This document shows positions 15,731 to 58,930 of a stretch of DNA of 64,000 bases, piece by piece. Source of the stretch: an uncultured Clostridia bacterium (GTDB taxonomy: Bacteria > Bacillota > Clostridia > TANB77 > CAG-508); assembly GCA_947632585.1 (NCBI GenBank), contig CANRPS010000002.1, forward strand, positions 8,232 through 72,231, in the 5' to 3' direction. Below the pieces are notes generated by a model, which saw nothing but the letters and a program-made list of their open reading frames with translations, had not been told where the DNA came from and did not search any database. Made by a program: the position numbers and the translations under genes. Within the stretch, counting starts at the first letter, position 1. Each line of letters begins with the position of its first letter.

Positions 15731-15769
15731 CGAACCGATAGAAAATATATCTATCGGTTCGTTTTTATT
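15731..15769. terminator. Bidirectional terminator
   Basis: cgaaccgatag/ctatcggttcg stem plus T5. Confidence 0.65.
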
Positions 15770-27530: not shown

Positions 27531-27560
27531 AACTTTTTATAAAAGAAGGTGAGATATGAT

Positions 27561-31678: not shown

Positions 31679-34600
31679 ATGAAGACAAAAAGAGAGGTAT
31701 TGAATAAAATTTGTGCCATCTTGATAATAACAGCAATGATGATAACTAACTTTTGGATGGTGGGAGAAGCTGCAGTAAGTTATGCGATTGATGCAGTTAA
31801 AACAAGTAATGCCAATGTTCATATTTCGGCATATTTTGTGGATGAAAATGGCGAAGAAGTAGAAAGTAAGAACAAAAGCATAACTGAAGAGGAAGAAAGC
31901 TTATATATTAAAATAGGGGTTAAAAATGATGGATACTTCAATGGAACAATAAAATTGGAGAATCCTAATTTTGCTGTGAGTAGAGAATATATAGACGAAG
32001 GAATATCTAGCATAACAGATGAAGGAAATATTGTTCTTAAACAGATAAATGCTGGAACAGAAGAAATAGTCGAATTAAAAGTTAACCCTATAAAAAATAT
32101 ATCTGGAGAATCTTTACAAACAGAGACAAAAATAAAATTAGAAGGTGAATACATAAATAGCAAAAATGTTGATAAAGATAAATCAGAAAAAATAACAGCT
32201 GAAACTAAGGTTAAATTAAATTTGATTTCACCAGAAGATAGTAAAATGGATTTGTCAAGTGAAGTCTTCACAAATAAAACCTATGAGATTGATGGAATAA
32301 ATAAAAAATTAGTTCAAATTCTTGTAAGAAGTAAAATAACTGATAATAACTATCCTGTAAAAACTACTAATATTAAATTGAGCAAAATAGATGGAACAGA
32401 AGATGTAAGAGTACAACAAGATAGTAAATATCTAAAATACACAGATTTAGAAGATAGTATAGAAATTAAATTAGAATCAAACGAAGAAAACATATATAAA
32501 GAACAAGAATTAATTGTAACTTACATTTTACCTGAAAATATAGATACTTTAAATAAAGACATAGCTTTAAGTGGAAATATAGAAACATATGATAATAAAA
32601 CATTAAATACAGATATTACAATAACAACAGGCGAAGAAAGGGAAGGTATAGTTTCATATGAAATAGAAAGCGAACAAGATATATATAAAGGTAAATTATT
32701 AATTAATGAAGCAAAAGAATATAAAACAAGCATAAAAGTAAATGTAAATTATCTAGAAGTAGCAAAAGAAATAAAATTTACTGCTGAGCCATCAACATTT
32801 TTATTGGGAAAAGAAAAAATTACAGCAAACAATATATATAAAGAAACAAAAATAAATAAAGATGAATTTTTAAAAATATTTGGAGAAGATGGATATTTAA
32901 CTATAACAGATGAGATGAACACTATAATAGCAAATATAAATGATGATAGTGAAGTAGATGAAGAAGGCAATATTGTAATAAAATATTTAGGTGAAACTAG
33001 AAAAATAGAAATTAACACTAGTGAACCAGTTGCAGTTGGATCTTTAACAATAGAAAATGTAAAAGAAATAAGAGATGCAGGATATGATAGAGAAACTAAA
33101 AATTCAATAACATATTTAAACGAAAAATTGACAGATGGTGAAGGACAAGAAAAAGAAACACAGATTGAATTAAAAAACGCAACAACAGAAGCAACATTAG
33201 AAATTAGCACAGATACATTATCAACATTAGAAACAAACAAAAATGTAAAAATAACAATAAAATTATTAAATAATGATGAAACAAAGGATTTATATCAAAA
33301 TCCAAAACTTAAAGTAAAATTACCAAGTGAAGTAAAAAATCTAAAAGCTAAATGTAAATTATTATACGGAAATGGTTTAACTTTAGGAAACTCACAGATA
33401 ATTAAAGAAAATGATAATTATGTGTTAGATTTGAATTTAGAAGGTACACAAAATTCTTATAATGCAGAAATGGTTGAAGGAACAACAATAATAATATATG
33501 CAGATATGGAATTAGATGAATTAGCACCAAATACAGAGGAAAGTATACAATTACAATATACAAATGAATTAGCAACAAGTTATATATCTGATGGAGCTAC
33601 TGAAGTTCCAGTAAATATTGAGTCTAGAGTTGGTGTATTTGCAATAAACAATATAGAAGCATTAGGAGTTACAACAATAGGAGATGAAGAAACTGAGCAA
33701 GTTAAATTAAGTATATCAGAAGAGCAAAAAGCAGCAACAATTGAACTTGGGGTAATTAATAATGAGGAAACTAATATAAAAGATGCAAAAATATTAGGAC
33801 ATTTCCCAACAAGAGAAAGCGATAATCTAGGAATAACTTTAACAAGTGGAATAAATATTGAACAAAGTGAAGGAATAAAAATTTATTATAGTGACAAAGA
33901 AGATGTAAATAACAATCCAGAAGATACATCTAATAATTGGTATGAAGAAGTAAATTTAAGCACATCAAAGAGTTATTTAATAGTAGTAGACAATATAAAT
34001 AGTAAAGAAAGATTAACAGCAAATTATTCAGTAAATATACCTGGAAGCTTAGATTATGACATGAGTGCAAAAGAAGGATATACTATTACATATACTAATG
34101 AAACAACAAATGAAGTAAAAGAATTAAAAGCAACAGAACTTGATTTAACTACAGGAGCTGGACCAGATTTAGATATGTCTGTAAAAGCTATTGCAGGAAA
34201 TGATATAGTTGGAGAAGGAAAAGATGTTGCAGATGAAACAGGTTTAGATGTTGTAGCAGGAGAAATCATCAAATATGAAGTAACTTTAACAAACAATGGT
34301 ACAGCACCAGCAACTAATGTAGCAGTAAAAGAAATAGTACCAGAACAAGTAGAACCATTGGAATTCGAAAAAACAGATGGAGGAGAATATAGAAAATTTG
34401 TAACATTAACTGGAACTAGAATAGTAACTGAGCCTATGATAGACGAAGATGGAGATCAAATATATACGGAAAAAGATGGAAATTATGAACCACTATTTAG
34501 TACTTATGAAATAGTTGGTTTTGCTCCAGAAGTAAGTAAAGAGATAGATAAAATAGAAGTAGGAGAAACTAAAACTATAGAGTTTTATTTAAGACCTACT

Positions 34601-36751
34601 GAATTGAGTACTGAAAAAATAATTAATGAATTACAAGTTAATTATAATGGAAAAAATGAAACTAAACATATTACTAATGCTGTAAAAAACAGCAATATGA
34701 TTGTAACTTTAGAACCAGGTAATGCAGATAGTGACGTTGATGAATTAGTGCCTGGAAATAAATATTTATTTATATTGAGATTGGACAATAATTCAGAAGA
34801 AACAAAGAATAATGTAAAGATAAATATACTAAACAATGATTTATTTGATATAGATTCTATTGTATATACATCAGGAGACGATGATTTTTTTGAAGAAACA
34901 AATGAATTTATAGTTAGTAAATTAGATGAAAGAATAGGAATTAACATAACAATAATACCAAAAGATACAATAACAACCGGTAATATAATGGATATTTATA
35001 CATCTATAGATTGTGATGGGGAAACATTAAGATCGAATAAAATAACTAAAACTTTAGAAACATCTAATTTGGATATAAATCTTGAATCTAATAATATTGG
35101 TGAAGAGATAGAAATAGGACAAGAAATTAATTATAAAATTACTTTGACAAATGCTGAAGATAGTATGGACTTAAATGAAGTAAAAATTCAAGATACAATT
35201 TTTAAAGATATGAACATAAGTGAAGTTTTAGTAAATGGAGAAACATTATCAACTGAAGATTATTCGATAAATTCAAAATATGATGTAAAAGAAAATGGTT
35301 CTTATACGGAGGATTCAGAAGGAGAAGGTCATTATTATTATTCTTATAGTGAAAACACGTTAGAAAAAATATTAAGTGTGGATACAGGAATTAAAGCTGG
35401 AGAAACGAAAGTATTAGAAATAAAATGTAGTCTTTCAGAAAATATTAGAACTCAAATTAAAGAACCAACAGAAATAAAAAATATTGCAGAAGTAATAACT
35501 GATACAGGAAAAGTTATACAAAGTAATGAAATAATACATCTTTTAAATCCTGAAGAACAAAAATATGAAGAGGAGCATAATCCGGATGATTATGTTACAC
35601 CAGATCCAGAAAATCCGGATAATCCAAATAACCCAAATAACCCAAATAATCCGAACAATCCGAACAATCCGAATAATCCAAATAATCCGAATAATCCGAA
35701 TGATCCAAACAATCCAAATAATCCGGATAATGAAGAAAAAACATATACTATATCTGGAATGGCATGGTTTGATGCAAATGAAAATGGTGAAAAAGAAAGC
35801 GGAGAACAAAGACTAAGTGGAATTACAGCTAAATTAATGAATTTAGATACAAATGAGACTAAAACAACAACAACTTCAGAGAGTGGATTCTATTCATTTA
35901 CAGGATTAACAAATGGAAAATATGTTGTTATATTTGAATATGATACTGAAAAATATATGTTAACAACATACCAAGCTGATGAAATAAGTGCAAATAAAAA
36001 TTCAGATGCAGAAAATGTAACAATGAAAATAGATGGAGAAGAAAGAAAAGTTTCATCAACAGATACATTAACAATAAAAGATAATAGTATTTCTAATATA
36101 GATATAGGATTAGTTTTGGCAAGAACATTTGATTTAGAATTAGCAAAAACTATTTCAAAAGTTACTATTACAAATGGAGAAGGAACGAAGACAACAAATT
36201 ATAATGGAGCAACATATGCAAAAGCAGAAATCAATGCAAAATATGCAGAAGATTCAACAATTGTAGTAGAGTACAAAATAAAAGTATCAAATACTGGGGA
36301 ATTAGCAGGATATGCTAAATCTATAATAGATTACAAACCAAAAGATTTAACATTCGATTCTAGCTTAAATAATGGATGGTATCAATCAGGAGACAATTTA
36401 TATTCAAATAGTTTAGCAAATACAAAAATAGAACCAGGAGAAAGTAAAGAATTAACATTGGTGTTAATAAAACGAGTTACAGAAAACAACATGGGATTAG
36501 TAAACAATCTTGCAGAGATAAATGAAGACTATACAGCTTTAGGAATAGCAGATAAGGATTCAACACCAGGAAATAAACAAAATGGAGAAGATGATTTAGG
36601 ATCAAGCGATTTATCAATAGGTGTAAAGACGGGTGCAGCAGTAAGCTATATTACATTCACAATTTTCTCAATAATGATTTTATTAGCTGTAGCATACTTT
36701 GTAAATTGGAAGTTAATGAAATCAAAAAAATTTATGGGAAAGGAGGAGTAG
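31679..36751 (+). CDS. Giant cell-surface protein (1690 aa) with DUF11 repeats and a Cna-B/SdrD-B-type domain
   Basis: Signal peptide. DUF11-like repeats (VTLTNNGTAPATNVAVKE). NPN nonapeptide-DNA repeat linker. SdrD-B-like segment (SGMAWFDANENGEKESGE...GFYSFTGLTNGKYVV). C-terminal VKTG + hydrophobic + KSKK tail resembling a sortase sorting signal. Confidence 0.75.
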   Translation: MKTKREVLNKICAILIITAMMITNFWMVGEAAVSYAIDAVKTSNANVHISAYFVDENGEEVESKNKSITEEEESLYIKIGVKNDGYFNGTIKLENPNFAVSREYIDEGISSITDEGNIVLKQINAGTEEIVELKVNPIKNISGESLQTETKIKLEGEYINSKNVDKDKSEKITAETKVKLNLISPEDSKMDLSSEVFTNKTYEIDGINKKLVQILVRSKITDNNYPVKTTNIKLSKIDGTEDVRVQQDSKYLKYTDLEDSIEIKLESNEENIYKEQELIVTYILPENIDTLNKDIALSGNIETYDNKTLNTDITITTGEEREGIVSYEIESEQDIYKGKLLINEAKEYKTSIKVNVNYLEVAKEIKFTAEPSTFLLGKEKITANNIYKETKINKDEFLKIFGEDGYLTITDEMNTIIANINDDSEVDEEGNIVIKYLGETRKIEINTSEPVAVGSLTIENVKEIRDAGYDRETKNSITYLNEKLTDGEGQEKETQIELKNATTEATLEISTDTLSTLETNKNVKITIKLLNNDETKDLYQNPKLKVKLPSEVKNLKAKCKLLYGNGLTLGNSQIIKENDNYVLDLNLEGTQNSYNAEMVEGTTIIIYADMELDELAPNTEESIQLQYTNELATSYISDGATEVPVNIESRVGVFAINNIEALGVTTIGDEETEQVKLSISEEQKAATIELGVINNEETNIKDAKILGHFPTRESDNLGITLTSGINIEQSEGIKIYYSDKEDVNNNPEDTSNNWYEEVNLSTSKSYLIVVDNINSKERLTANYSVNIPGSLDYDMSAKEGYTITYTNETTNEVKELKATELDLTTGAGPDLDMSVKAIAGNDIVGEGKDVADETGLDVVAGEIIKYEVTLTNNGTAPATNVAVKEIVPEQVEPLEFEKTDGGEYRKFVTLTGTRIVTEPMIDEDGDQIYTEKDGNYEPLFSTYEIVGFAPEVSKEIDKIEVGETKTIEFYLRPTELSTEKIINELQVNYNGKNETKHITNAVKNSNMIVTLEPGNADSDVDELVPGNKYLFILRLDNNSEETKNNVKINILNNDLFDIDSIVYTSGDDDFFEETNEFIVSKLDERIGINITIIPKDTITTGNIMDIYTSIDCDGETLRSNKITKTLETSNLDINLESNNIGEEIEIGQEINYKITLTNAEDSMDLNEVKIQDTIFKDMNISEVLVNGETLSTEDYSINSKYDVKENGSYTEDSEGEGHYYYSYSENTLEKILSVDTGIKAGETKVLEIKCSLSENIRTQIKEPTEIKNIAEVITDTGKVIQSNEIIHLLNPEEQKYEEEHNPDDYVTPDPENPDNPNNPNNPNNPNNPNNPNNPNNPNNPNDPNNPNNPDNEEKTYTISGMAWFDANENGEKESGEQRLSGITAKLMNLDTNETKTTTTSESGFYSFTGLTNGKYVVIFEYDTEKYMLTTYQADEISANKNSDAENVTMKIDGEERKVSSTDTLTIKDNSISNIDIGLVLARTFDLELAKTISKVTITNGEGTKTTNYNGATYAKAEINAKYAEDSTIVVEYKIKVSNTGELAGYAKSIIDYKPKDLTFDSSLNNGWYQSGDNLYSNSLANTKIEPGESKELTLVLIKRVTENNMGLVNNLAEINEDYTALGIADKDSTPGNKQNGEDDLGSSDLSIGVKTGAAVSYITFTIFSIMILLAVAYFVNWKLMKSKKFMGKEE
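35612..35731 (+). repeat. Tandem 9-bp coding repeat (aat-cc[ag]-aa[ct]) giving an (NPN)n linker
   Basis: About 13 tandem copies inside the giant protein gene. Confidence 0.8.
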
Positions 36752-36761
36752 AAAAGCCATT

Positions 36762-39700
36762 ATGAAAAAGTTAAGTATAAAAAATTTAATTTTAATATTT
36801 ACATTATTAATATTATTTATATGTAGCTTTAGCACAGGAGTACTTGCTCGAGAAATAACATGGAAAGAATTTACAGGACAAAAAGGCCTTTGTCTTGAAC
36901 ATGGTGCGACATTTCGTAAAGATTTAGGATGGGAAGGACACGGAAATATACGTTTTTATGTAGCAAGCTACATAGTGTATTGGAAAAACATCTACTATGA
37001 ACCTTATTGGAAAAAAGTTGATACAGATAACGATGGCATAAAAGATAAATGGAAAGAATTTGAAAGAAAAGTTGTAGAAAATAAAACAACAACGAATCCT
37101 GGACAACTTGGTGGTGACATGCCAGGGATTGAAGTAAAAAATGAGTTTGCGGAAGCAGGATCAGGAATAATACAAGTGCGGATTTGGTAATACGACTGCT
37201 AATACTGTTGGATTTGTATTGCATAATAATGAAGGGTATGGGCATAGCACACAAGATTGGGTTTGGAATAATATAGGAACAGTTTTAAGTGCTTTAGGAG
37301 CAAGACAACCTAGAAATAGAACGGCTAAAACTTCTTTTACAACAAAAATAGCTTCTAATAATGTATCAAATTTGAAGATTGCAGCTAATAGTTCGGAAAA
37401 TGATTTAACTGAAACTATTACAGATAATAGTTCTAAAAATGATATTATAGGTAAAATTGATAATACATCTATAGCAAACACATCAGTAGGTACAGAGTTA
37501 AAAGACTATTTAGACGAAATAGAAGAACCATTTTTATATAATGAAAGTGGCGGTAAAGAAAATGATAATGTAAATAATAATGGAGACAACCCTGTTATAT
37601 CATATAATGATTTATTAGGACCATTTACTATAAATTGGGATGATACTAATAGAAATAAAAATTTTGGAGATAATTATGCAGTTAGTAAATTAACAAGAAT
37701 AACAATTAATTATCTTGATGGAGAACCAGACATCCTTGATATTGAAGATAAAAATAATACATCAAATATAGAGATAGTTCAAGAACAAAATGGAGTGTTT
37801 AATACATTTAAAGAACCATATAAGATAAATAAAAATAAACCTTTTTATATTAAAAATCCAGATTTGGAAAGAGAAGTAACAAGCGTAAAGATTCATCTTA
37901 AAAAAGTAGCAGAATTCCAAACTGCTCATTTTCAAAGATACAATGGAACTACTTCAGATATTAAAGATAAAGCAACAGCCAAAACTCTAATTAGAAAAAA
38001 ACTTATGGAGGATCCTTATACTAAGCGTGGTTATCCTAATATGTGGAATATTGTAGTTACTTCTGTAGAATTGGATGAAGTTTATAAGCCTCAAAATATT
38101 ATGTTTGTAAGTAGCCTTACATTAGAAGGTACAGCTGAATTGGATCTTGAAATAGGTGTACTTGTTAAAAAAGGTGATATAGAGTTAACTAAAGAGGGTA
38201 CTTATAATGATCAACATGAACTATTACCAAATGTAAAATTTGCAGTGTATTGTAATGAGATAGGAAAATATGTAAAAGACATTGAGCTAGTTGAAGGATC
38301 AACAACTCAATATAGAACGACATTTACAGAAAAATTAGAAGAAGCAAAAGTATACACAACAGATGAAAATGGTAAAGTTTTAATAGAAAACTTGTATGCT
38401 GGTAAAGATGATGATATAGAACATTCAGGTGGAGGATATAGCTATAAATTAGTAGAAATAGATGCAGGAGATAACACATATTATATAGATCCACATAAAC
38501 TTGCAAGAGGAGAAAGTACTCATAAAGAAACAACGACTTCTGGAGAAGAGGAAAAATTAGACCCAAATATTGCAACAGGACATGTTGATGTGGATGATAA
38601 ACAATATTGTGTCCTTGATAATGTTACACCATATTATGATAATATAGGTGGAACAAAAGGAAAAGGACAACGTGTAAAAACTTATGTTACAATAGAAGAT
38701 GATAGAAGTTCAGGAGACTTGACAATAGAAAAAGCTGATGAAACATTCCCTGATGAAGTTAAACTTAAAGGTGCTGAATTTAAAATTAAGTTAGTAAGAA
38801 GTGATAATTCAGATGAACCAGAACATGACCTTGGATTAAGTAACTTATGGTTGAAATTACCACCTAATAGTACCGACGGACACTATGATTATAATGATTT
38901 ATTACATGACGAGTATCTAGGAGATGAAGCATCAAGTGCAACATTTGTTACAGATGAAGATGGAAAAATAGACATTAAATGTATTATAAATGGTACTTAT
39001 CACATATATGAAACAAAAGCATCAATAGGATATGATATAACAAAACAATATAATTACGGAAAAGATCCTGATCATCCAACATGGGTTGATTATGGAGAAA
39101 TAACAATAACAACTGGAAACAACCATTTAGAACCTCAATTGCTAAACAGAAAAATAGCAGCAAAACTAGAAGGAGAAGTATGGTTAGATGTACCAGCAAC
39201 AAATAAAAAAGCAACAGAATATGATGGTTTAATATGGACACATAAAGATACAGCTATAGATCCAGGAATAACAGTTAACTTAAAAGATGAAGCTGGAAAC
39301 TTAATGGCAACAACAATAACAGATGGAAATGGATATTGGAGTATAGACAAGAAAATAAATAATACAGAAGATAAATTCAAATCTGATATATATTATTGGG
39401 ATTTAACAAATGCATTTGTAGAGTTTATATATGATAACCAAAAATATGTATGTGTAGATCCATTTGTTGGAGGAGCTGCTCAAGTTAAAGAAAATTCAAA
39501 AGCTAAAGAATATTTATTAGAAGAAAGAGAATTAGATGACAGAAACTTAACAGGTGTAGAAGGTAATTGCCCAGGAATTGCGGTTACAAAACAAAAAGCA
39601 ACAACAGGAATGACACCTTTAGATATAATAGAATTTAGATGGGACAATGAAAACTTTACTTTACCTGAATTAGGATTAACTGGTTATTATAATGTAGATA

Positions 39701-42180
39701 ACTTTACAGTAGAAAATATTAATTTAGGATTATGGGAAAAAATACCACCAACATATAGTATCTTAGAATCACTTCAATATAGTAAGGTATCAGTAAATGG
39801 TTATACTTATACTTACGATTATGTAGATGGAACAACAGGAACAATAGATTCTAGTATGGTTCCAGTAACATATAGACAAACAGGAGCTAAACATTATGGA
39901 GCAAAAGTATATCCATCAGATATAGCATATACAGTTGAAGGAAGAGAAAATGGTATACAAATGTATGTTGTATATAAGATAAATGTTACAAACTCAACTA
40001 CTACAAAATTAGAAGACATTTATGACGAAGTTAGATTATATCTAACATCACTTACAAACACATTTAACTCATACAAATATGAGATATCTACAGACCATAC
40101 AGGAGATGCAAACTGGCAAGGATCACAATATTTCGGATTCTGGGAAAAATCAGAAGATAATTTAGCAAATTATAGAATAGATGATGATGGTAGTGTAATA
40201 TCAGGAGATAAATTAAGTGATGGTATAAAACCAGGAGAAACAGAAAGTGTTTATGTACAATTTAAAGTACAAGAACAATTCTTAAAAGATATATTAGCAG
40301 GAACAATACCTGAAGGAGAAGACTCTTATGCAGTATCTGTTGCTCATTCTATAGGACACCATGTATATACAAGAACAGATAATGTATGGACAAGAGATGA
40401 AAAAGAAGGTAGTGCAACATATTATAAAGATAGTAGAGAAGTAGACCACAATGAAACTACAGGAGATGAATTCTTACACAGATCTTTAGATTATCCTGAA
40501 GATGCAGGAGCATTAGGAATATTATTCTCATTAGGAGAAGAGAGAGTTATATCAGGTACTGTATTTGAAGATATTAAAACTGAAGAAAGTGCAGAAGATA
40601 ATACAAACTTAGGAAATGGATTAATGGATAATGAAGAAGGCAACAGAGGACAGGAAGTAAAAGTAGAATTACTTAATGCTTCATCAAATGAAAATGCTAT
40701 CTTATATCAAAGACCTGGTGATACAACAGCAGAAAAAGTTCAAGATAAAATTGAAAAAGGATATATGATTACAAAAGCAATTACAACAACAAATCCAGAA
40801 GGATATTATGAATTCTTAGGAGTTACTCCAGGAGTATATAAATTGAGATTTACATATTCTAATGGAGACCAAGTAATAATGAATCCTGATGGAACAAAAA
40901 TAACTGCAAATGATTATAAATCAACAATTATTAACACTAATGAAGCAGGAAGATTGATACAAAATGCTGAAGAAACAGCACGAGAAACAATGATAGAAAA
41001 CACTAATATTTATAACAATGCAGTAAAAACTAGAAATTATTCAAATGGTTTAGGCGAAGATATTCAAAATATACAAAGAATTATAGAATGGTATAAATAT
41101 TTGTATAATAATACTCCAGATTTACAATATAACGTGGTAACAGATGATTTGGAAATGAGAAGTAAATTCGAAACCTATGAATATAGTACAGAAGATGGAA
41201 AAACAATAGTAAGAGATGAAGATGGAAATATAGTTGATCCATTCCCAATAATGGAAAGCTATTCACCATATTTCAGTATTACAATAGAAAATGATATAGC
41301 AGACAGAAACAATGTAGATTTATCAACACATGGATATGGACACAATCCAGAATATAGAAAATTCAACTTTGGTTTAATAAAAACTACTGAAACTACAATA
41401 ACATTAGATAAAATCATATCAAATGTTAAATTAACAAATAGTGCAGGAACATCATTAGTACAAGACGATCCTAGAACAGCATTAAATTATGTAACGGCAT
41501 TAGACGACTTATCAGAGGGAAGTAAATATGTAAGAATTGAAATGCCACTAGAAGATATTTTTGGTACAGCACTTCAAACAACATATAGAATTTATATAAC
41601 AAATACTTCTGTAAAAGATTATATAGAAAATCGTGAAGATGCACATTATGGTTATTACTTCAAGTATGGAGATAAAATAACAGGAAATGCATATTTAACT
41701 AGAAAGACAGTAACAGAAGTAATAGACATCCTTGATAATGATTATGATTTATTAGATGATATAGTAGTAGAAAACGTAGAACACCCAGAAGAGTCTAGAG
41801 ATGGAGGAAAACATTCTGAAACTAGTGAAGTAAGGGTAACAGCTGATGAAGAAGGAAACAGATTAATCTTTACAGAATGGACTGGAATTGAAGCAGGAGG
41901 TGTAACTCAAATTGATTACACAGTAGGCGGAATTTTCCAAGAAGATATGGACTTAATATATGATAATAATGCTAAGATTACTAAGATGAAACTAGATTAT
42001 AGTGAAAACTTAAGAACATTATATATTTGGCAAGATTATTCTAAGACAAGATTAATCGTAACACCAGACACTGGTGAAGATAGAAGACCTACATACTATG
42101 TAGTTGGAGCTATAGCATTAGTTATATTAGCAATAGGACTTATTGTTATAAGAAATGGCATTCTTAAGAAAGACGAATAA
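36762..42180 (+). CDS. Second giant surface protein (about 1800 aa) with Cna-B-type domains; its N-terminal signal-peptide ORF is joined to the main ORF at an in-frame CGG
   Basis: ORF 36762-37190 is a secreted N-terminus with a signal peptide. ORF 37219-42180 has no signal peptide. Reading C-GGA at 37179 as Gly gives IIQV-G-FGNTTANTVGFVLHNNEGYG continuity. The C-terminus has a TM plus basic tail. Confidence 0.65.
37179..37181 (+). other. In-frame CGG at a +1 junction (gtg CGG att tgg taa; +1 gives V-G-F-G)
   Basis: Seen in sequence. Same gtg-CGG-att context as the mrdA site. Confidence 0.65.
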
Positions 42181-49037: not shown

Positions 49038-50420
49038 ATGTTAGATTCAATGGACAAAATAGTAAACTTATGTAAATCAAGAGGATATATATATCCAAAC
49101 TCGGAAATATATGGTGGACTTTCAAATACATGGGATTATGGACCTATAGGTGTGGAATTGAAAAATAATATAAAAAAAGCTTGGATGAAAAAAATGGTTC
49201 AAGAAAATAAATATAATGTAGCATTAGATTCAGCTATATTAATGAATCCAGAAGTTTGGGTTACAACAGGACATGTGGCAAGCTTTTCAGATCCTTTAAT
49301 AGATTGTAAATCTTGTAAGACAAGACATAGAGCAGATAAATTGATTGAGGAATGGGCTGCAAAAAATGGAAAAGATGTTATTGCAGATGGATGGTCAGAT
49401 GAAGAAACTATTAAATACATAAATGAAAATAACATTGTTTGCCCTAATTGTGGTAAATTAGACTATACAAGTATTAGAAAATTTAATTTAATGTTTAAAA
49501 CTTTTCAAGGTGTAACAGAAGATGCGAAATCAGAAATATATTTAAGACCTGAAACAGCACAAGGAATATTTGTAAATTTTAAAAATGTTATAAGGACTAC
49601 TAGAAAAAAAATTCCTATGGGAATTTGCCAACAAGGTAAAGCTTTTAGAAATGAAATTACACCTGGTAATTTTATTTTTAGAATGCGTGAATTTGAACAA
49701 ATGGAAATGGAGTTTTTCTGTAAGCCTGATACAGATTTAGAATGGCATGAATATTGGAAAAAAGCTTGTATGGAATTTTTAATATCATTAGGTGCTAAAA
49801 AAGAAGACTTAAGATTTAGAAATCACTCTAAAGAAGAACTTTCATTTTATAGTAGAGCTACGGCTGATATAGAATATTATTTCCCATTTGGATGGGGAGA
49901 ACTTTGGGGTATTGCTGATAGAACAAACTATGATTTATCACGACATATGGAAGCAACAAAACAAGATTTAACATATCAAGATCCAGATACTGGTGAAAAG
50001 TATGTACCATTTGTAATAGAGCCTTCCGTAGGTGTAGATAGACTATTCTTAATGTTCTTATGTAATGGTTATGAAGAACAAGAAATAGAAAAAGATGATA
50101 TTAGAACTATATTACACCTTCATCCAGCACTTGCTCCTTATAAAGTTGCAGTATTACCATTATCTAAAAAGCTATCAGAAAAAGCTACTGAAATATATGA
50201 TAAATTATCAAAATCATTTATGTGTGATTATGATGAAGCAGGCTCTATAGGAAAAAGATATAGAAGAGAAGATGAAATTGGAACGCCTTATTGTTTAACA
50301 ATTGACTTTGATACATTAGAAGATGGAAAAGTTACTATAAGAGATAGAGATACAATGGAACAAATTCGTATTCCAATTGATGAAGTAGAAAATTGGATTA
50401 AAGAAAAAATAGAATTTTAA
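49038..50420 (+). CDS. glyQS: Glycine--tRNA ligase (alpha2 dimeric type)
   Basis: N-terminus [32 protein letters not shown] and class II motifs. 460 aa. Confidence 0.9.
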
Positions 50421-50478: not shown

Positions 50479-50559
50479 TGATTTTTGACGCAATTATTGC
50501 TTATATCTAACAAATGATAAAGAGGTAAATTTAAGATTTTAATAGATATTTATAAAAAA

Positions 50560-50586
50560 TTTCGCAGAATTAAATATTCTACGAAA
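50560..50586. repeat. Left inverted repeat (27 bp) of candidate invertible promoter 1
   Basis: tttcgcagaattaaatattctacgaaa. Itself a palindrome (10-bp arms, 5-nt asymmetric spacer taaat). Confidence 0.7.
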
Positions 50587-50735
50587 GTTTTATATTAATA
50601 TAATATCAATAAAAGATTTGTTTTACAATAGTTTTTACAAAAAAAATATAAAAAATTACCTTTTTATAAAAAAGTATTTTAATTAATATAAATCTTTGAA
50701 TAGTCTATAAATGAAGTAATATTTCTCTAATGAAT
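50587..50735. promoter_or_regulatory. Candidate invertible 149-bp promoter segment (inverton) upstream of BspA-like gene 1
   Basis: Flanked by perfect 27-bp inverted repeats. AT-rich with promoter-like hexamers. Confidence 0.5.
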
Positions 50736-50762
50736 TTTCGTAGAATATTTAATTCTGCGAAA
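50736..50762. repeat. Right inverted repeat of inverton 1
   Basis: tttcgtagaatatttaattctgcgaaa, the exact reverse complement of 50560-50586 including the spacer and the arm mismatch. Confidence 0.7.
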
Positions 50763-50782
50763 ATATCAAAGGAGAAAGAAAA

Positions 50783-52354
50783 ATGATAAAATCAATAGTT
50801 ACAAGAGAAAAGTGTAAAGTAACAAGTAAAAAAGGAATAACATTAATAGCATTAGTGGTAACAATAATAGTGCTATTAATATTAGCGGGAATATCAATAC
50901 AAATGTTAACAGGACAAAATGGAATACTAAAAAGGGCAGAAGAAGCAAAAATAAAAACAGATTTAGCAAAAGAAAAGGAATTTTTGGATTTTTCAGTAAC
51001 ATCAGCTTTTACTCCAGAAAGTTTATATAGTGAATTTACACTAGATAGTTTACAAACAAGTCTAAATTCTTATTTTGGTAATAATGAAGCAACTGCTGTT
51101 GAAAATCCAGATGGTTCTTTTACTATTAAAATTAAAGAAAGTGGTAATGAATATCAATTAACAAAAACTGGTCAAGAAATTAATGTTAATAAAGTAAAAG
51201 ACGAGCATCCAGCATTTCTTTCTGGAACTGGTTCTGAAGAAGACCCATTTTTAATAGAAAGTATTGAGGATTTAGTATTTTTCTCATATCAAGTAAGAGA
51301 AGGTATTGAAAATTATGAAGGAAAATATGTTGAGCTTGCAACAGATTTAAACTTTTCTTCAAGTAATAGTTACGTTGACCCAAATTGTGAAGATTATAGC
51401 AAGTATGGATACACTGGAAAAATTAAAGAGGAAATTGATAAAAATGGTTTTATTCCAATTGGACAATTAGGTCGTAAAAATGAAACTTCTTATCAAAAAT
51501 ATTTTAAAGGAACATTTGATGGAAAAAAGCATAGTATAATAAATCTAAGTATAAGCAAGAATTTAGAATTAGAAGAAGATGTTAATGGAGACATAGGTTT
51601 CTTTACAATTAATTTCGGTACAATTAAAAATTTAAACCTTATTTCAAATTCATCTATAAATTTAAAAACGTCAAATCAGTTTGCTGCAGTAGGCTTTTTA
51701 TGTGGAGTAGTTGGGATGAAGGATGTTGGAGATGGTTTTATTGAAGATTGTAAAGTTGGTGGTAACTTAACAGCAAATATTATAGGATATGCTTTTAATG
51801 TTGGTGGACTTGTTGGGGCGTTAAATGGAGAAATTAAAGGTTGTATTAATAGTACAAATATAACAATTGAGAGTAATCTTTCTGGAGCATTAAGAGTTGG
51901 AGGAGTTTGTGGAGCTATGGATATTAATTCAGTTGTTGAAAATTGTTATAATACAGGAAAACTTGCTATTGGTACTAATGTTAGCGGATACGTTGGAGGT
52001 ATAACAGGCATTATTGGACAAACAGCAAATAGTATAAAAAACGTGTATAATATTGGAAAAATAGAAGAAACATCAACTTCTTCTAGTAGAGGGCTTAATA
52101 TTGGTGGAGTAGTTGGGTTTAAAGATGGATCATCTTCTTGTGTTGTTGAAAAAACATATAGTTTAGATGGCTTAATAACAACACATAATTCAAATTCGTT
52201 AATAACAGATACAGGTTACGAGAAAAAAACAAACAAGGAACTTTCTGGTCAGGCTGGTGTTACACTTTTAAATACTGGTAATGATAACCCTATTTGGGTG
52301 GAAGATACAAATAATATAAATAATGGGTATCCAATTTTAAAATGGCAAGTTTAA
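50783..52354 (+). CDS. Surface protein with prepilin-like N-terminal anchor and Gly/Val-rich repeat body (paralog 1)
   Basis: N-terminus KKG|ITLIALVVTIIVLLILAGISI resembles a type IV prepilin cleavage/methylation segment (Ala instead of Glu at +5). Body is repetitive (GGVxG ... NIGG). First 59 aa are almost identical to the ORF at 52712. Confidence 0.6.
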   Translation: MIKSIVTREKCKVTSKKGITLIALVVTIIVLLILAGISIQMLTGQNGILKRAEEAKIKTDLAKEKEFLDFSVTSAFTPESLYSEFTLDSLQTSLNSYFGNNEATAVENPDGSFTIKIKESGNEYQLTKTGQEINVNKVKDEHPAFLSGTGSEEDPFLIESIEDLVFFSYQVREGIENYEGKYVELATDLNFSSSNSYVDPNCEDYSKYGYTGKIKEEIDKNGFIPIGQLGRKNETSYQKYFKGTFDGKKHSIINLSISKNLELEEDVNGDIGFFTINFGTIKNLNLISNSSINLKTSNQFAAVGFLCGVVGMKDVGDGFIEDCKVGGNLTANIIGYAFNVGGLVGALNGEIKGCINSTNITIESNLSGALRVGGVCGAMDINSVVENCYNTGKLAIGTNVSGYVGGITGIIGQTANSIKNVYNIGKIEETSTSSSRGLNIGGVVGFKDGSSSCVVEKTYSLDGLITTHNSNSLITDTGYEKKTNKELSGQAGVTLLNTGNDNPIWVEDTNNINNGYPILKWQV

Positions 52355-52486: not shown

Positions 52487-52513
52487 ATTCGCAGAATTAT
52501 CTATTCTGCGAAT
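52487..52513. repeat. Left inverted repeat of inverton 2
   Basis: attcgcagaattatctattctgcgaat. Confidence 0.7.
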
Positions 52514-52664
52514 TTTTCTTTTATTAATGATATCAATAAAATATTTATTTTACAATAGTTTTTACAAAAAAAAATATAAAAAAATATATTTCTATAAAAA
52601 AGTATTTTAATTAATATAAATCTTTGAATAGTCTATGAATAAAGTAAATATTCCTTTATTAAAT
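52514..52664. promoter_or_regulatory. Candidate invertible promoter segment upstream of BspA-like gene 2
   Basis: Flanked by perfect inverted repeats. The segment is homologous to 50587-50735. Confidence 0.5.
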
Positions 52665-52691
52665 TTTCGCAGAATAGATAATTCTGCGAAA
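52665..52691. repeat. Right inverted repeat of inverton 2
   Basis: tttcgcagaatagataattctgcgaaa, the reverse complement of the left copy including the spacer. Confidence 0.7.
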
Positions 52692-52711: not shown

Positions 52712-54061
52712 ATGATAAAATCAATAATTACAAGAGAAAAGTGTAAAGTAACAAGTAAAAAAGGAATAACATTAATAGCATTAGTGGTAACAATAATAGT
52801 GCTATTAATATTAGCAGGAATATCAATACAAATGTTAACAGGACAAAATGGAATACTAAAAAGAGCAGAAGAAGCTAAAATAAAAACAGAAATTGCTACA
52901 GAACAAGAACAAATTGAATTTGCTGTAGCTGAAGCACTAACAAAAGAAAATTTATATAATGAACTAACAAAAGAAAACTTAAAAGATGAATTAGTAAAAT
53001 TGTTTGATGAAAAAAATATAAATTTAGTTGATAATTCTAATGGAACTTTTTTATTAGAGCTTTTAGAGGAAAATAGAAAATATATTATTTCTAATGAAAA
53101 GGTGAAATTAATAGATTTAGAAGAAATTTTTAAAAACGCTAAAGCTCCAGATGAACAACAGATAGTAAGCAAAGATATAATAGGAATAGGTGCATTTGGA
53201 GAACAAGTTAATATGGATTTATGGGAATATACTTTATTAGAAGATGGTTCAATAGGATTAAATGATGAAATTGCTCTACAAGGTTCAAGTGAAGGGAGAA
53301 GTAGTGGATATTTAGGAAATTTAAATGAAGATGGTACAATCATTGGTGTAATTCCAATGTATATTAGTATAGATAAAGAAAAGAACTTTAGACCTGTTAC
53401 AAGTTTGGTACATACATTTTATAAATTAGATATTGTTAAGGCACCACCTATTCCTAGTACAGTTGTTAGAATGTCAGTAGCTTTTTATTATTGTGAAAAA
53501 TTAACTGAAGCTTGTGATGTTCCAAATAGTGTTGAAACTATAAATTATACTTTTTCAAATTGTAGTTCTCTTGAAAATATGCCTAATATTGGAAAAAATG
53601 TTAAAAACATGATTGGAACTTTTCAGGATGATACTTCTTTAAAAAATGTAAAATCTTTACCAGACTCTGTGACTGATTTGACTGGTGCATTTTTTGGATG
53701 TGATCATATTTTAAGTATACCAGAGATTCCTAAAAATGCTATAACACTCAAAAATGCTTTTACAAATTGTCAAATGGCGGTTAAAGGTCCGACTACTATT
53801 CCAAATAAAGTTGAAAATTTGACTGATGCATTTTATAATTGCCACAAATTAGTAAATCCTCCTAAAGAGATACCAGCTAGTGTAAAAAGTATGGATAGAG
53901 CGTTTAAAAATTGTAATTCATTTAATGGAACAATAGAAGTCAATGCAAATCCAGATAGTTATGCTGATTGCTTTATGGGAATACCAAGAGAAAATTTAAC
54001 ATTAATTGGTTCTAGTGACAATTTAGATGAATTAAAAGAACAATTGAAAGTTACAGAATAA
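52712..54061 (+). CDS. BspA-type leucine-rich-repeat surface protein with prepilin-like N-terminal anchor (paralog 2)
   Basis: Same 59-aa N-terminus as paralog 1. C-terminal LRR_5/BspA-like repeats (VPNSVETINYTFSNCSSLENMPNIGKNV ... IPKNAITLKNAFTNC). Confidence 0.7.
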   Translation: MIKSIITREKCKVTSKKGITLIALVVTIIVLLILAGISIQMLTGQNGILKRAEEAKIKTEIATEQEQIEFAVAEALTKENLYNELTKENLKDELVKLFDEKNINLVDNSNGTFLLELLEENRKYIISNEKVKLIDLEEIFKNAKAPDEQQIVSKDIIGIGAFGEQVNMDLWEYTLLEDGSIGLNDEIALQGSSEGRSSGYLGNLNEDGTIIGVIPMYISIDKEKNFRPVTSLVHTFYKLDIVKAPPIPSTVVRMSVAFYYCEKLTEACDVPNSVETINYTFSNCSSLENMPNIGKNVKNMIGTFQDDTSLKNVKSLPDSVTDLTGAFFGCDHILSIPEIPKNAITLKNAFTNCQMAVKGPTTIPNKVENLTDAFYNCHKLVNPPKEIPASVKSMDRAFKNCNSFNGTIEVNANPDSYADCFMGIPRENLTLIGSSDNLDELKEQLKVTE

Positions 54062-54156: not shown

Positions 54157-56304
54157 TTACTTGAAAAGTCGAGAGATGAAGTCGAGCAAGTTGTACTTGC
54201 TAAAGATTGACACACCAATCAAAGAAATGGTGCTCATAATCTTTATCAAGATGTCAAGAGAAGGTCCGACGGTATCTTTCAGAGGATCTCCAACGGTGTC
54301 ACCGACGACAGCCGCAACATGTGCAGAAGAGCCTTTCTTTCCCTGAGACTCGATATACTTTTTGGAATTGTCCCAAGCACCACCAGCATTGCCACAGAAA
54401 ATGGCAAGCATAATGGCGGAAATGGTAGATCCAATAAGTATTCCCGAGACGAAGTTCGGTCCGAGGATAAATCCAGAGACTATCGGAACTAGAATGGAAA
54501 TCAGGGCGGGGAGTTTCATCTCCGCTAAGGCTCCATTTGTTGCAATCTGAATGCAACGCTTGTAGTCTGGCTTGGAATTACCTTCACGCAAGCCGGGAAT
54601 TTCACGGAACTGCCTTCTCACTTCTTCAACCATTCTCTTTGCGGAGCTGCTAACAGCTTCGATTAGGAGACCGGAGAAGAAATACGAGATGGCTGCACCG
54701 ATCAAAGTCCCTGCAAGAGTTACAGGATTCATCAAATTCAGACTAACTTCCACATCAACAGGAGTGAAGCTATACAAGAACGAGATCATAAGCGAAACTG
54801 CAGCAAAAGCCGCAGAACCGATTGCAAATCCCTTTCCGATAGCAGCTGTTGTGTTGCCAACAGAGTCGAGCTTGTCGGTTATTTCTCTAACGTCATGGTC
54901 AAGTTTGGCCATTTCGGCAATTCCTCCGGCATTATCAGAAATCGGACCATATGTATCAACAGATACAGTGATAGCCACGAAACTGAGCATTCCGACAGCA
55001 GCCATGGCAGTGCCATAAATACCACTGAAGAAATAAGCTACCATGAGTGAACCACCGAGGACAATCAGAGAGAGCATCGTAGATTCCATACCAACAGCCA
55101 ATCCTTGAACAATCGTGATTGCAGAACCTTCTTTGGAGAAGAGTGCAATCTTTTTAGTGGGCTTGTAATCATATGAGGTATAATATTCGGCAATCATGCC
55201 AATTATGATACCCGCAACGACGCCAATCACACTTGATGCCCAAGGAGAGAGACTACCCAGCTTAAATGGAAGCTCACTAAAGTTTTGACCATTGAAGTAG
55301 AAAAGCGTGAACGCGAAGTTCAACACAATTGTGAGTCCAGCAGAAAGCCAAGTAGCGAAGTTGAGTTCTTTGTGCGGATCGGAACTATCTCCCTTGGAAA
55401 GCACGTAACCGAGCCCTACAATACAGGAGATCAAACCGAAAGCACAAAAAACCACTGGATACAGATAGAGCTTTTCCAACAGCTCTATGGAGAATCCTTT
55501 GCTCTTCGCAGCGAAGCTTATGAACAGATGTATCGCAAGCACCATAGCGCTTACAATTGCACCCATGTAGCTTTCAAGAAGGTCAGATCCAAGTCCGGCG
55601 GTATCACCGACATTGTCTCCAACACAATCTGCGATTACGGCAGGATTCCGAGGGTCGTCTTCGGGGATATTTTCTTCCGTTTTCCCAACAAGGTCTGCAC
55701 CCATGTCAGCTGCTTTGGTATAAATACCACCACCAACACGATTGAACATCGCAATGATGGAACAGCCAAGGGCATAGGATGAGAGAGTCATTGAGAATGG
55801 GACGAAAGAAATTCCACACCAGTTCGGTATTGCTTCCATTACGGAAAGTTGATCTTTGTACGTGGCATAGACTAAAACCAGTCCGATGAGAGCAAAGCTT
55901 GCGACACAGAGTCCCATGACAGAACCACCACGAAGTGCAACCTTCAGGGTTTTGCCAATGTGCTTGCTTCTCCTAGCCATGTTGGTGACTCTAACATTGG
56001 CATATGTCGCCATTTTCATGCCGACAAAGCCAGCCAGTCCGCTCATTACAGTGCCTGTAAGAAAGGCAACCGCACATGAAACAGAGAGGAGTACACCGAA
56101 ACAAAGAGCCAAGATTCCTACGACGACGATTAGCACTTTATACTCACTGAAGAGAAAGGTGCTAGCTCCAACGCGAATTGCGGATGCGATTTCGGACATA
56201 TCTGCAGTACCTTCGTCAAGAGATTCGACCTTGAAGAAGTTGTACATTGCGTAGAATGTTCCGAGAGCCGCAGCAGCCAGTACGAATAGCATCAAACTAC
56301 TCAC
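54157..56304 (-). CDS. hppA: Membrane-bound proton-translocating pyrophosphatase
   Basis: About 715 aa, about 16 TM helices. GNTTAAIGKGFAIGSAA and DxxGDPxKD motifs. About 50% GC versus 25% background. Start is uncertain: TTG 56319, GTG 56304 or ATG 56289. Confidence 0.8.
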   Translation of the reverse strand: MSSLMLFVLAAAALGTFYAMYNFFKVESLDEGTADMSEIASAIRVGASTFLFSEYKVLIVVVGILALCFGVLLSVSCAVAFLTGTVMSGLAGFVGMKMATYANVRVTNMARRSKHIGKTLKVALRGGSVMGLCVASFALIGLVLVYATYKDQLSVMEAIPNWCGISFVPFSMTLSSYALGCSIIAMFNRVGGGIYTKAADMGADLVGKTEENIPEDDPRNPAVIADCVGDNVGDTAGLGSDLLESYMGAIVSAMVLAIHLFISFAAKSKGFSIELLEKLYLYPVVFCAFGLISCIVGLGYVLSKGDSSDPHKELNFATWLSAGLTIVLNFAFTLFYFNGQNFSELPFKLGSLSPWASSVIGVVAGIIIGMIAEYYTSYDYKPTKKIALFSKEGSAITIVQGLAVGMESTMLSLIVLGGSLMVAYFFSGIYGTAMAAVGMLSFVAITVSVDTYGPISDNAGGIAEMAKLDHDVREITDKLDSVGNTTAAIGKGFAIGSAAFAAVSLMISFLYSFTPVDVEVSLNLMNPVTLAGTLIGAAISYFFSGLLIEAVSSSAKRMVEEVRRQFREIPGLREGNSKPDYKRCIQIATNGALAEMKLPALISILVPIVSGFILGPNFVSGILIGSTISAIMLAIFCGNAGGAWDNSKKYIESQGKKGSSAHVAAVVGDTVGDPLKDTVGPSLDILIKIMSTISLIGVSIFSKYNLLDFISRLFK

Positions 56305-56591
56305 ATGATTCAACTCCAATCTTGTTATGTGTTTATCAATGTTCCGTATTTGAGGTTACTTCTGCAAGGGAATCACCCCTTTCAATAGTCGGTCGGATTT
56401 TGCCTTTGAGTTACAACTTAGACTTCAAATCACCTCTTTCATATTTTAGTAAGAAAATCCCGAATAGCTGAATCAGCTAAACATAATAATTATACCAAAA
56501 AATAGCGAAAATGTCAATGTGTTGAAAGAACAGGTTGACATAAGAAAAAGCCTATATAAATATAAAAAAAACTCTAAAAATTATGTAAAAT

Positions 56592-58294: not shown

Positions 58295-58329
58295 GTATTA
58301 TATTTGAAAAATTTAAAAAAATAATATAT

Positions 58330-58930
58330 AATTATTAAAGATGGTGCATTATTCTAGTCATATTATTTATTGTGAGGGTGGGGCTAAAAATCCACTAAAG
58401 GGCATATTTAGGACTTTTTGTTTATGCGCAAAATGCCAGTTTTGTGTGTGAGTAGGAAGAATAAGTTAAGGGTATGATGTAGTGGCATATGTCAAATCCC
58501 TTATCTTGCCAAGACTTATTAAAATTTTTAAGTTAAACCTATGTGAGTGCCAAGACACGAAAGGCATAGAGTAGCCTGTCTTGAGTGAATGTATTGGAAT
58601 TATTTTTATGAATATGAAATTACATTTGCAAAAGAGACTAGCAATAAAACAAATATGTTAAGGAAAACTTCTAGGATGTTTATTCGTGATACGAATGAGA
58701 AAATTTAAGGATTAAGGTACGGATTTAAGTGGCTATCTGGTGGCTAAAAATAGATGCTTTTTTTAAATGGAAACGGCTATGTAGTAATATAATAGTAAAA
58801 AGCAGAGAAATTCGACCAGACCTAAACCGTAAAATTTACTTAGATTTTTACCATCTAAATAATTAAAATAATAGGGCGGTTTTTAACTGCCCTAAAAAAA
58901 TAAATAAAAATTGTTGTAAAAAATAAAAAA
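58330..58930 (+). ncRNA. ole: Candidate large structured ncRNA, possibly OLE RNA
   Basis: About 600 nt with no ORF. Markedly higher GC than AT-rich intergenic background. Immediately upstream of a 4-TM small membrane protein on the same strand, matching the known ole-oapA arrangement. dxs is also in the window. Confidence 0.4.

Follow-up and report, generated by a model that had tools for sequence, protein, structure and literature searches.

In the fimS switch of Escherichia coli type 1 fimbriae, a short invertible segment with the promoter of adhesin/pilus genes is set ON or OFF by the tyrosine recombinases FimB and FimE, which act at 9-bp repeats with flanking half-sites, need IHF and Lrp and are encoded by adjacent genes. 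Bacteroides species carry many invertible promoter segments (invertons), mostly OFF, before the upxY genes of their capsule loci, and are served by Tsr and by Mpi, a global invertase that is a serine recombinase. In Cre/loxP and Flp/FRT, palindromic arms surround an asymmetric spacer that sets the polarity of the site; the lox spacer must match between partners, and the engineered variants lox511 and lox2272 are mutually incompatible. In Clostridioides difficile, the cwpV and flgB switches act after transcription initiation, cwpV by way of a terminator. Two publications on RecV concern these switches, together with cmrRST and pdcB, as short invertible elements before surface and motility genes on which a single tyrosine recombinase, encoded elsewhere, acts in trans (PMC5386303, PMC9286219). 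The locus analysed here lies in a window of 64,000 nucleotides (the whole stretch of DNA under study; contig CANRPS010000002.1 of assembly GCA_947632585.1) from an uncultured Clostridia bacterium. It comprises a 149-bp intergenic segment between inverted repeats, immediately upstream of a putative surface adhesin gene (switch 1 and gene 1), and a paralogous segment (switch 2) ~1.9 kb downstream, upstream of gene 2. Judged from sequence, both are likely to be phase-variation switches in which a promoter segment is placed between two inverted, full recombination sites.

Compared with fimS, which also combines a short invertible adhesin promoter with tyrosine recombinases and ON/OFF control, the window contains complete 27-bp palindromes with a variable spacer and no recombinase nearby, and its sites belong to a family found in many genomes. 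The likeness to the C. difficile switches drawn in the initial annotation holds for the Firmicute host and for the proposed action of a tyrosine recombinase in trans; however, the match to cwpV is loose, and the promoter here lies inside the segment. Other members of the site family precede NusG-like (UpxY-like) genes that lead polysaccharide loci, as do the capsule promoters of Bacteroides, which nevertheless belong to another phylum and have other repeat motifs. Cre/loxP and Flp/FRT share the design of palindromic arms around a polarity-setting spacer, but the likeness is one of design only: the window sites have 11-bp arms and a 5-nt spacer (7 nt if the fixed T and A are counted) where those systems have 13 and 8, the enzyme linked to the family is nearest to Tn1549 Int and XerA rather than to Cre or Flp, and the diversity of spacers is natural and genome-wide. 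A serine-invertase type (Hin/hix, Gin/gix, Mpi), which has dyad sites of even length around a central 2-bp crossover and a Resolvase-domain invertase, was considered and rejected, given a 27-bp site with an odd spacer, no Resolvase domain in the window and a linked enzyme of the Phage_integrase type. The features of the two switches, in window coordinates, are the following.

50545–50586, minus strand: terminator-like element for OFF transcripts, left-site hairpin (50586–50560) followed by UUUUUU (TTTTTTATAA)
50560–50586: switch 1 left (gene-distal) site, TTTCGCAGAAT-TAAAT-ATTCTACGAAA, outer arm with the C variant and inner arm with the T variant
50587–50735: switch 1 putative invertible segment, 149 bp, AT-rich, ~90% identical to the switch 2 segment
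50600–50628, minus strand: candidate sigma-70 promoter of switch 1, -35 TTGTAA (50628–50623), 17-nt spacer, TG-extended -10 TATTAT (50605–50600)
50736–50762: switch 1 right (gene-proximal) site, TTTCGTAGAAT-ATTTA-ATTCTGCGAAA, exact reverse complement of the left site, no U-run after it
50769–50775, plus strand: ribosome-binding site (RBS) AAAGGAG of gene 1
50783–52354, plus strand: gene 1, 523 aa, prepilin-type hydrophobic leader and GLUG-motif C-terminal part
52488–52512: switch 2 left site, TTCGCAGAAT-TATCT-ATTCTGCGAA, between an A-run and a T-run
52513–52665: switch 2 putative invertible segment, 153 bp, paralogue of the switch 1 segment
52527–52555, minus strand: candidate promoter of switch 2, TTGTAA, 17 nt, TG-extended TATCAT
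52666–52690: switch 2 right site, TTCGCAGAAT-AGATA-ATTCTGCGAA, exact reverse complement of its left partner
52712–54061, plus strand: gene 2, 449 aa, prepilin-like N-terminal module and BspA-type LRR_5 C-terminal part

Direct reading and a repeat finder both confirmed the initial annotation of two exact 27-nt reverse complements around 149 bp, at 50560–50586 (tttcgcagaattaaatattctacgaaa, equal to TTTCGCAGAATTAAATATTCTACGAAA) and 50736–50762 (tttcgtagaatatttaattctgcgaaa, equal to TTTCGTAGAATATTTAATTCTGCGAAA); in the repeat finder, the inverted repeats reach 30 nt at 97%. Each copy is itself a near-palindrome around an asymmetric 5-nt spacer, as had been recognized, with arms of 11 nt on both sides, and 0 such sites are expected by chance. 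The mirroring that had been reported between the copies was likewise found, in the spacers (TAAAT and ATTTA) and in a single C/T arm mismatch, which lies on the inner arm of both. Two details had to be corrected. The right repeat stops 20 nt short of the ATG (50783) and 8 nt short of the GGAG, in place of the 21 bp to the RBS formerly given, and the product of gene 1, formerly called BspA-like, has a GLUG motif, the BspA-type LRR_5 domain being that of gene 2. Switch 1 has the layout of an inverton, with a pair of inverted repeats around a short intergenic segment beside a gene start. When the dyad TTCGCAGAAT-N5-ATTCTGCGAA was searched with up to three mismatches, four matches were found in the window against 0.00 expected (100 shuffles), corresponding to the switch 1 pair and to a second pair at 52488–52512 and 52666–52690. 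All four sites fit the Y/R consensus of the family given below without mismatch and deviate from TTCGCAGAAT/ATTCTGCGAA by 0–1 mismatch. Contigs from ENA metagenomes were retrieved by exact-protein look-ups with gene 1, gene 2 and a 70-aa fragment; the switch 1 region is 100% identical in independent contigs of four samples and is therefore no assembly artefact.

Each of the two genes is preceded by its own cassette, and the cassettes are ~90% identical. Between the sites of switches 1 and 2 there are three differences, of which two fall in the spacer and one in the inner arm; each is mirrored in the partner site, and the 25-nt core contains no unmirrored difference. Both cassettes have kept a perfect inverted repeat of 25–27 nt, although the DNA between the sites differs by ~10% from one paralogue to the other. 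Partner sites that stay identical while the loci drift are expected of recombination partners with a matching exchange region, unlike operators or terminators, and the mirrored differences point to continuing selection for partner identity. The argument from inverted asymmetry, made in the initial annotation on switch 1 alone, is strengthened by this second pair.

The window sites belong to a family that is widespread among gut Firmicutes. A scan for TTCGYAGAAT-N5-ATTCTRCGAA, in which each species was represented by one genome and loci were delivered as 8-kb blocks, matched at least 115 genome-contig stretches (cited below, like other contigs, by L numbers) across Firmicute genomes, mostly of gut Lachnospiraceae, Oscillospiraceae and Erysipelotrichales, with GC contents of 26–62%. 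Among the matches listed, with up to three mismatches, two or more sites were found in 63 loci; in 60 pairs the spacers are reverse-complementary, with a sequence that varies between loci, while mirror spacers would arise by chance in 1/1024 per pair; six further pairs straddle block borders. No pair in direct orientation was found among these matches (60/60 inverted). The occurrence of the palindrome elsewhere only as single copies, which the initial annotation had named as evidence against an inverton, was not observed, and the near-constant arrangement as inverted pairs with mirror-image spacers supports its view of the switch 1 repeats as recombination sites in inverted orientation. From 118 oriented sites, a profile yielded the 27-bp consensus T-TTCGYAGAAT-N5-ATTCTRCGAA-A, equal in length to the repeat of the initial annotation; 22 of its stem positions are conserved across families over the whole range of GC contents. 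The distances between paired sites fall into classes of 136–231 bp (mode 178), 320–421 bp and 1107–1786 bp (with a recombinase inside), and a few of 2.2–3.9 kb. The pairs in the window agree with the family in arms that match the consensus, in mirrored spacers (TAAAT/ATTTA and TATCT/AGATA) and in site-to-site distances of 176 bp (switch 1) and 178 bp (switch 2), which lie in the modal class.

All 25 of the short pairs listed, including both window pairs, contain one good sigma-70 promoter that reads outwards, with its -10 element about 10–14 nt from one repeat; in GC-richer genomes these promoters consist of TTGACA or TTGAAA, 17 nt and TATAAT. In L016 and L115 this promoter is directed towards the adjacent gene, in most other short pairs away from it. 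The genes directly downstream of short pairs encode NusG/UpxY-like proteins, MBOAT acyltransferases, TnpB-like proteins, a 1110-aa surface protein and a 605-aa protein with a prepilin leader (L058), which are the usual cargo of phase variation. TnpB/Cas12f-like genes (434–486 aa, PF07282) begin 27–90 nt from a family site in L032, L046, L048, L069, L070, L075, L077, L098, L103, L112 and L115, where the site belongs either to a 320–420-bp promoter inverton or to a recombinase cassette (for example L103 4381–5752). The expression of these TnpB-like proteins would be phase-variable if the adjoining sites invert. No TnpB gene was found in the window by tblastn.

Clustering of the open reading frames (ORFs) of family loci revealed one dominant group, present in 64 loci, which resolved into a tyrosine recombinase and the TnpB-like protein. 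The tyrosine recombinase (Phage_integrase plus SAM_3; 313–395 aa) is the commonest neighbour protein, and its gene lies between the paired sites in ~30 loci; in the 1.1–1.8-kb class, one site is located 150–250 nt before the recombinase start and the other 10–52 nt past its stop. Tn1549 Int and XerA come nearest to the site-linked enzyme, which stays under all NCBIfam equivalog cut-offs. When the recombinase of the low-GC locus L045 was used as the query, a protein search returned at least 7998 homologues. Those at ~42% identity in a conserved FHA-PP2C-kinase context carry no such sites, and therefore only a subfamily of the recombinase is site-linked. The search did not lead to the enzyme of the host organism; the candidates P0235 and P0233 were rejected, as they belong to other organisms and lie beside an FHA-PP2C-kinase operon with no family sites. 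The trans-acting tyrosine recombinase proposed in the initial annotation is thus backed by the linkage of the family to such enzymes, but the invertase gene that had been looked for within the 64-kb window, of either the tyrosine or the serine type, is not there. In a relative of 27.5% GC (L126 3837–8511, with L127–L131), a recombinase cassette with ATTTA/TAAAT sites, the spacer of switch 1, stands directly upstream of a 1070-aa SpaA/SdrD-type adhesin gene; its right site lies within a longer palindrome, and the cassette has the same orientation in nine contigs from nine samples.

Inversion within the family is directly visible at an orthologous locus. When L069 (and L081, from the same metagenome-assembled genome, MAG) was compared with L115, the left flanks were 86% and the right flanks 91.6% identical, and the 337-bp inner segment was 92.3% identical only when flipped. 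L070 has the orientation of L069, and L115 is the flipped orthologue of both. Both orientations are therefore found for the family at the L069/L115 locus, not at the window locus, where flipping is inferred. More flips relative to one conserved flank were found between L048 and L075, L075 and L087, L048 and L103, and L070 and L115, and several recombinase cassettes are flipped relative to a conserved TnpB flank. Moreover, true contig ends have a family site within 60 nt in at least 18 cases, among them both ends of a 2294-nt contig (L057). This enrichment is far above chance for contigs of tens of kb and is typically left by invertible DNA when short reads are assembled. The presence of one outward promoter in each short family member, together with the orthologous locus in both orientations, supports the invertible promoter proposed in the initial annotation. 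In one ENA sample (ERZ27249546), position 52512 is the last of contig L004 and 52458 the first of contig L122. The 55-nt overlap is what a k=55 graph node typically leaves, and the sequence common to both orientations of switch 2 ends with its right edge; the contig break at the inner edge of the switch 2 left site hints at mixed orientation. A scan of JGI metagenomes with a 32-mer of the inner core gave 0 matches, the organism being absent from that collection.

Two further arrangements of family sites were observed outside the window. In L049 (3485–3509), a single site, composed of outer arm, spacer and outer arm, joins flanks that are split in relatives by a 1.5–1.6-kb recombinase cassette (L015 2819–4470 and L024 3029–4583; right flank 92–94% identical). 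It resembles an empty site, and the cassette may also excise or integrate. In one Oscillospiraceae MAG, L056 (31–55), L073 (29–53) and L090 (29–53) start with the same 30 nt and a site with a GAAGT spacer and then diverge, while the complementary spacer is in L080 (848–872). With one spacer common to more than two sites, the set represents either a shufflon-like multiple-inversion system or a repeated element.

The candidate promoters in the window read TTGTAA-17-TGaTATTAT in switch 1 and TTGTAA-17-TGaTATCAT in switch 2, with -10 elements that end 14 nt from the left repeats. They are recognized as outward promoters by sequence only, from a placement shared with 23 other short family members and from their conservation between the two switches. 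Since both promoters are on the minus strand, near the left repeats, and read leftwards away from the genes, both switches appear to be OFF. On the minus strand, the left site of switch 1 folds with -14.4 kcal/mol (z -5.8) and is followed by U6, and that of switch 2 folds with -20.7 kcal/mol and is followed by U8; with its A-run and T-run, the latter looks like a bidirectional terminator. The right sites lack a U-run; the letters that follow are AAAUAUCAAAGGAG, and the Shine-Dalgarno sequence is left free. A U-run behind the distal site was considered as a rule for the family and rejected, as it was seen only in the window and in L069, L070, L115 and L108.

In the mechanism that we propose, the 11-bp arms would be the binding places for a dimer of an Xer-like tyrosine recombinase, encoded elsewhere in the genome and acting in trans. 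A spacer of odd length, here 5 nt, is never palindromic and therefore gives the site a direction. It would most likely be the region of strand exchange, possibly extended to 7 nt (T-N5-A), in which case partner sites must share the spacer and switches with different spacers should not cross-react. In the present orientation, the promoter would read to the left into the distal site, where the hairpin and U-run would terminate the transcript and leave gene 1 OFF. Inversion would place the promoter ~14 nt from the proximal site, and it would read through that site, in the absence of a U-run, into the RBS and the adhesin gene, turning it ON. The flipped form of switch 1 would be recognized by the junctions ATTCTACGAAA/ATTCATTAGAGAAATATTAC and TATTAATATAAAAC/TTTCGTAGAAT or, in longer form, TTTCGCAGAATTAAATATTCTACGAAA/ATTCATTAGAGAAATATTACTTC and CTTTTATTGATATTATATTAATATAAAAC/TTTCGTAGAATATTTAATTCTGCGAAA, where the slash marks the junction.

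Several observations weigh against working switches in this genome. Promoter-like hexamers are common at 25% GC (27 found in the region versus 17 expected), and therefore the promoter call depends mainly on a position that matches family members. The window and the ENA contigs of four samples (five assemblies) present both switches in a single orientation, although consensus contigs may hide a minority orientation. Searches of the 64-kb window with Pfam (ORFs of at least 116 aa) and tblastn found no tyrosine or serine recombinase gene, and the left sites also resemble plain intrinsic terminators. Among low-GC relatives, the nearest one to carry a recombinase cassette (P0128 locus, with the spacer of switch 1) shows one orientation in 9 contigs from 9 samples and mismatches in its inner arms; sites alone do not prove flipping. 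The single orientation in five assemblies, the lack of a recombinase in the window and the decaying inner arms of the related low-GC locus would all suit a frozen relic, in which cassettes of the inverton family have lost their recombinase, or it is inactive on them, so that the promoters are locked in the direction away from the genes and the sites are kept as terminator hairpins. We regard such a relic as unlikely, because both pairs are perfect over 25–27 nt despite the divergence of the intervening DNA, the three differences between the paralogues are all mirrored, and one contig breaks off precisely on the inner border of the switch 2 left site. Least probable of all is a reading of the sites as common intrinsic terminators or as RNA hairpins that act as insulators or 5' stabilisers, with a coincidental similarity. 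While the left sites do score as terminators, folding with -14 to -21 kcal/mol and carrying U-runs, no U-run follows the right sites, conservation of 22 stem positions across families of 26–62% GC is not a property of terminators, and the mirrored loops and the recombinase linkage would be left unexplained.

Palindromes of the size bound by helix-turn-helix dimers, two of them 176 bp apart around a promoter region, could also be the operators of a dimeric repressor that loops the DNA over the promoter with no recombination. However, a symmetric dimer is blind to the polarity of the spacer, yet 60 mirror-spacer pairs differ between loci; the linked protein is a tyrosine recombinase and not a repressor, the orthologous segment was found flipped and the sites are enriched at contig ends, all of which makes operators hardly credible. 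A last alternative takes the repeats as the ends or attachment sites of a mobile element, such that a promoter-carrying, non-autonomous offshoot of the recombinase cassette was inserted in a solo palindromic site before each gene and the repeats are scars rather than parts of a working switch. The single "empty" site of L049, as opposed to the cassettes of L015 and L024, is consistent with this, as are the different outer-arm and inner-arm variants of switch 1, which look as if the inner arms had arrived with the cassette, and Altae-Tran et al. take such repeats as attachment sites (PMC10691335). Nevertheless, integration by a tyrosine recombinase leaves sites in direct orientation, whereas 60/60 pairs are inverted, and viral carriage of the site pattern amounts to only 1 match in 2.9 million viral contigs. 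Mobility would in any case be compatible with inversion, and would explain the origin of the cassette but not its present function; insertion without a working switch is very unlikely. Phase-variation switches with an invertible promoter are still the likely explanation for both segments.

The two genes behind the switches encode proteins with a common N-terminal module of 124 aa (64% identity), which starts with a prepilin-like leader (KKGITLIALVVTIIVLLILAGIS), and with different C-terminal parts. Homologues of the module go by the name of type II secretion system protein or ComGC; PF07963 (N-methylation motif family) is present in one. The product of gene 1 is a putative surface adhesin. Upstream of the closest homologue of gene 1 (L120 780–1843; 77% nucleotide identity, same study) lies a divergent XRE-type HTH gene but no family site, and the adhesin family of gene 1 is thus regulated differently in L120. 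On a low-coverage contig from another sample (L123 1–522), the right site of switch 1 and the start of gene 1 are fused to a gene-2-like body, a sign that the paralogues have recombined or that a third variant exists.

The host is an uncultured Firmicute with a GC content of 25%. No relative in the collection exceeds 90% protein identity, and the clusters into which the host proteins fall have one or two members, from NCBI and ENA only. Upstream of switch 1 lie a glycyl-tRNA synthetase gene (49038–50420) and a terminator, and the rest of the window is ordinary Firmicute chromosome, with AddB, RF2, ValRS, MreBCD, PBP2, MinC, DXS, an H+-pyrophosphatase and OLE RNA. The window also harbors a sortase gene and genes for two giant SpaA/SdrD-domain proteins (1690 and 1653 aa), as well as a lone TraG/VirD4-type coupling protein gene amid housekeeping genes (778–1359, 11828–13879 and 31679–42180 for the whole set), none of them with family sites nearby. 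The H+-translocating pyrophosphatase gene (54157–56319, minus strand) has 41–50% GC compared with ~25% for the genome, and three ENA contigs end inside it (54358, 54541 and 55559); it may have been horizontally acquired or be common to other members of the community. The OLE (ornate, large, extremophilic) RNA is full-length (58325–58870, plus strand; 269.8 bits). In PBP2 (27549–29652), the transpeptidase domain runs on into a second, overlapping ORF (29260–29652), and a DAO/Rieske oxidoreductase (15765–17269) is split into 16751–17269 and 15765–16598; these breaks are possible frameshifts or pseudogenes.

Two published observations probably or partly concern the same sites. The hCom2 community study (Microbiome 2025) describes an inverton group, 139, that is specific to Clostridia (32/33 invertons, 17 strains) and is paired with invertase group 35 (PMC11892184). 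Group 139 has a previously unpublished motif, with a 25-nt repeat in Clostridium sp. D5 and segments of ~230 bp; it shows the strongest statistical link to a tyrosine recombinase group, and its orientation shifts in reads (PMC11892184). In the same study, the six inverton motifs cited as already published come from Bacteroidota or Akkermansia only (PMC11892184). Compared by repeat length, host class and recombinase type only, group 139 is probably the family described here; the study sets out no site anatomy, spacer logic or architecture with the recombinase inside the cassette (PMC11892184). Altae-Tran et al. (PNAS 2023) reported recombinases "in a seemingly random orientation", with inverted repeats, upstream of inactivated TnpB, and took the repeats as attachment sites; L032, L046, L069, L098 and L103 match this arrangement, for which inversion or phase variation was not proposed (PMC10691335). 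A full-text literature search for the site sequence returned primer matches only and nothing relevant. The site family is thus widespread and hardly described, while invertons as a kind are already known.

Tentatively, since the broader picture goes well beyond the window, its two switches may belong, as outposts, to a very widespread system of lox-like inversion in gut Firmicutes. One Xer-like recombinase subfamily, often encoded in an invertible cassette of its own, would act in trans on many sites with near-invariant arms, whose spacers would serve as locus addresses that prevent recombination between different switches, and would phase-vary NusG-led capsule operons, adhesins and TnpB-like proteins, the cassette occasionally excising from or integrating at solo sites, as in L049. 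The published "random orientation" of recombinases near inactivated TnpB could then be re-read as programmed inversion. The family seems to be a Firmicute counterpart of the Bacteroides capsule invertons with a clearer anatomy, in that lox-like sites combine conserved arms with variable spacers, and its one-line sequence pattern offers a means of locating phase-variable genes in Lachnospiraceae and their relatives. It also yields a testable rule, namely that spacer identity decides the choice of partner. If this is true, many mutually orthogonal sites for a single recombinase already exist in nature and may form a ready-made toolbox for recombination. For the host of the window, the prediction is a combinatorial ON/OFF display of two adhesins that would have a common pilin-like anchor and different binding domains.

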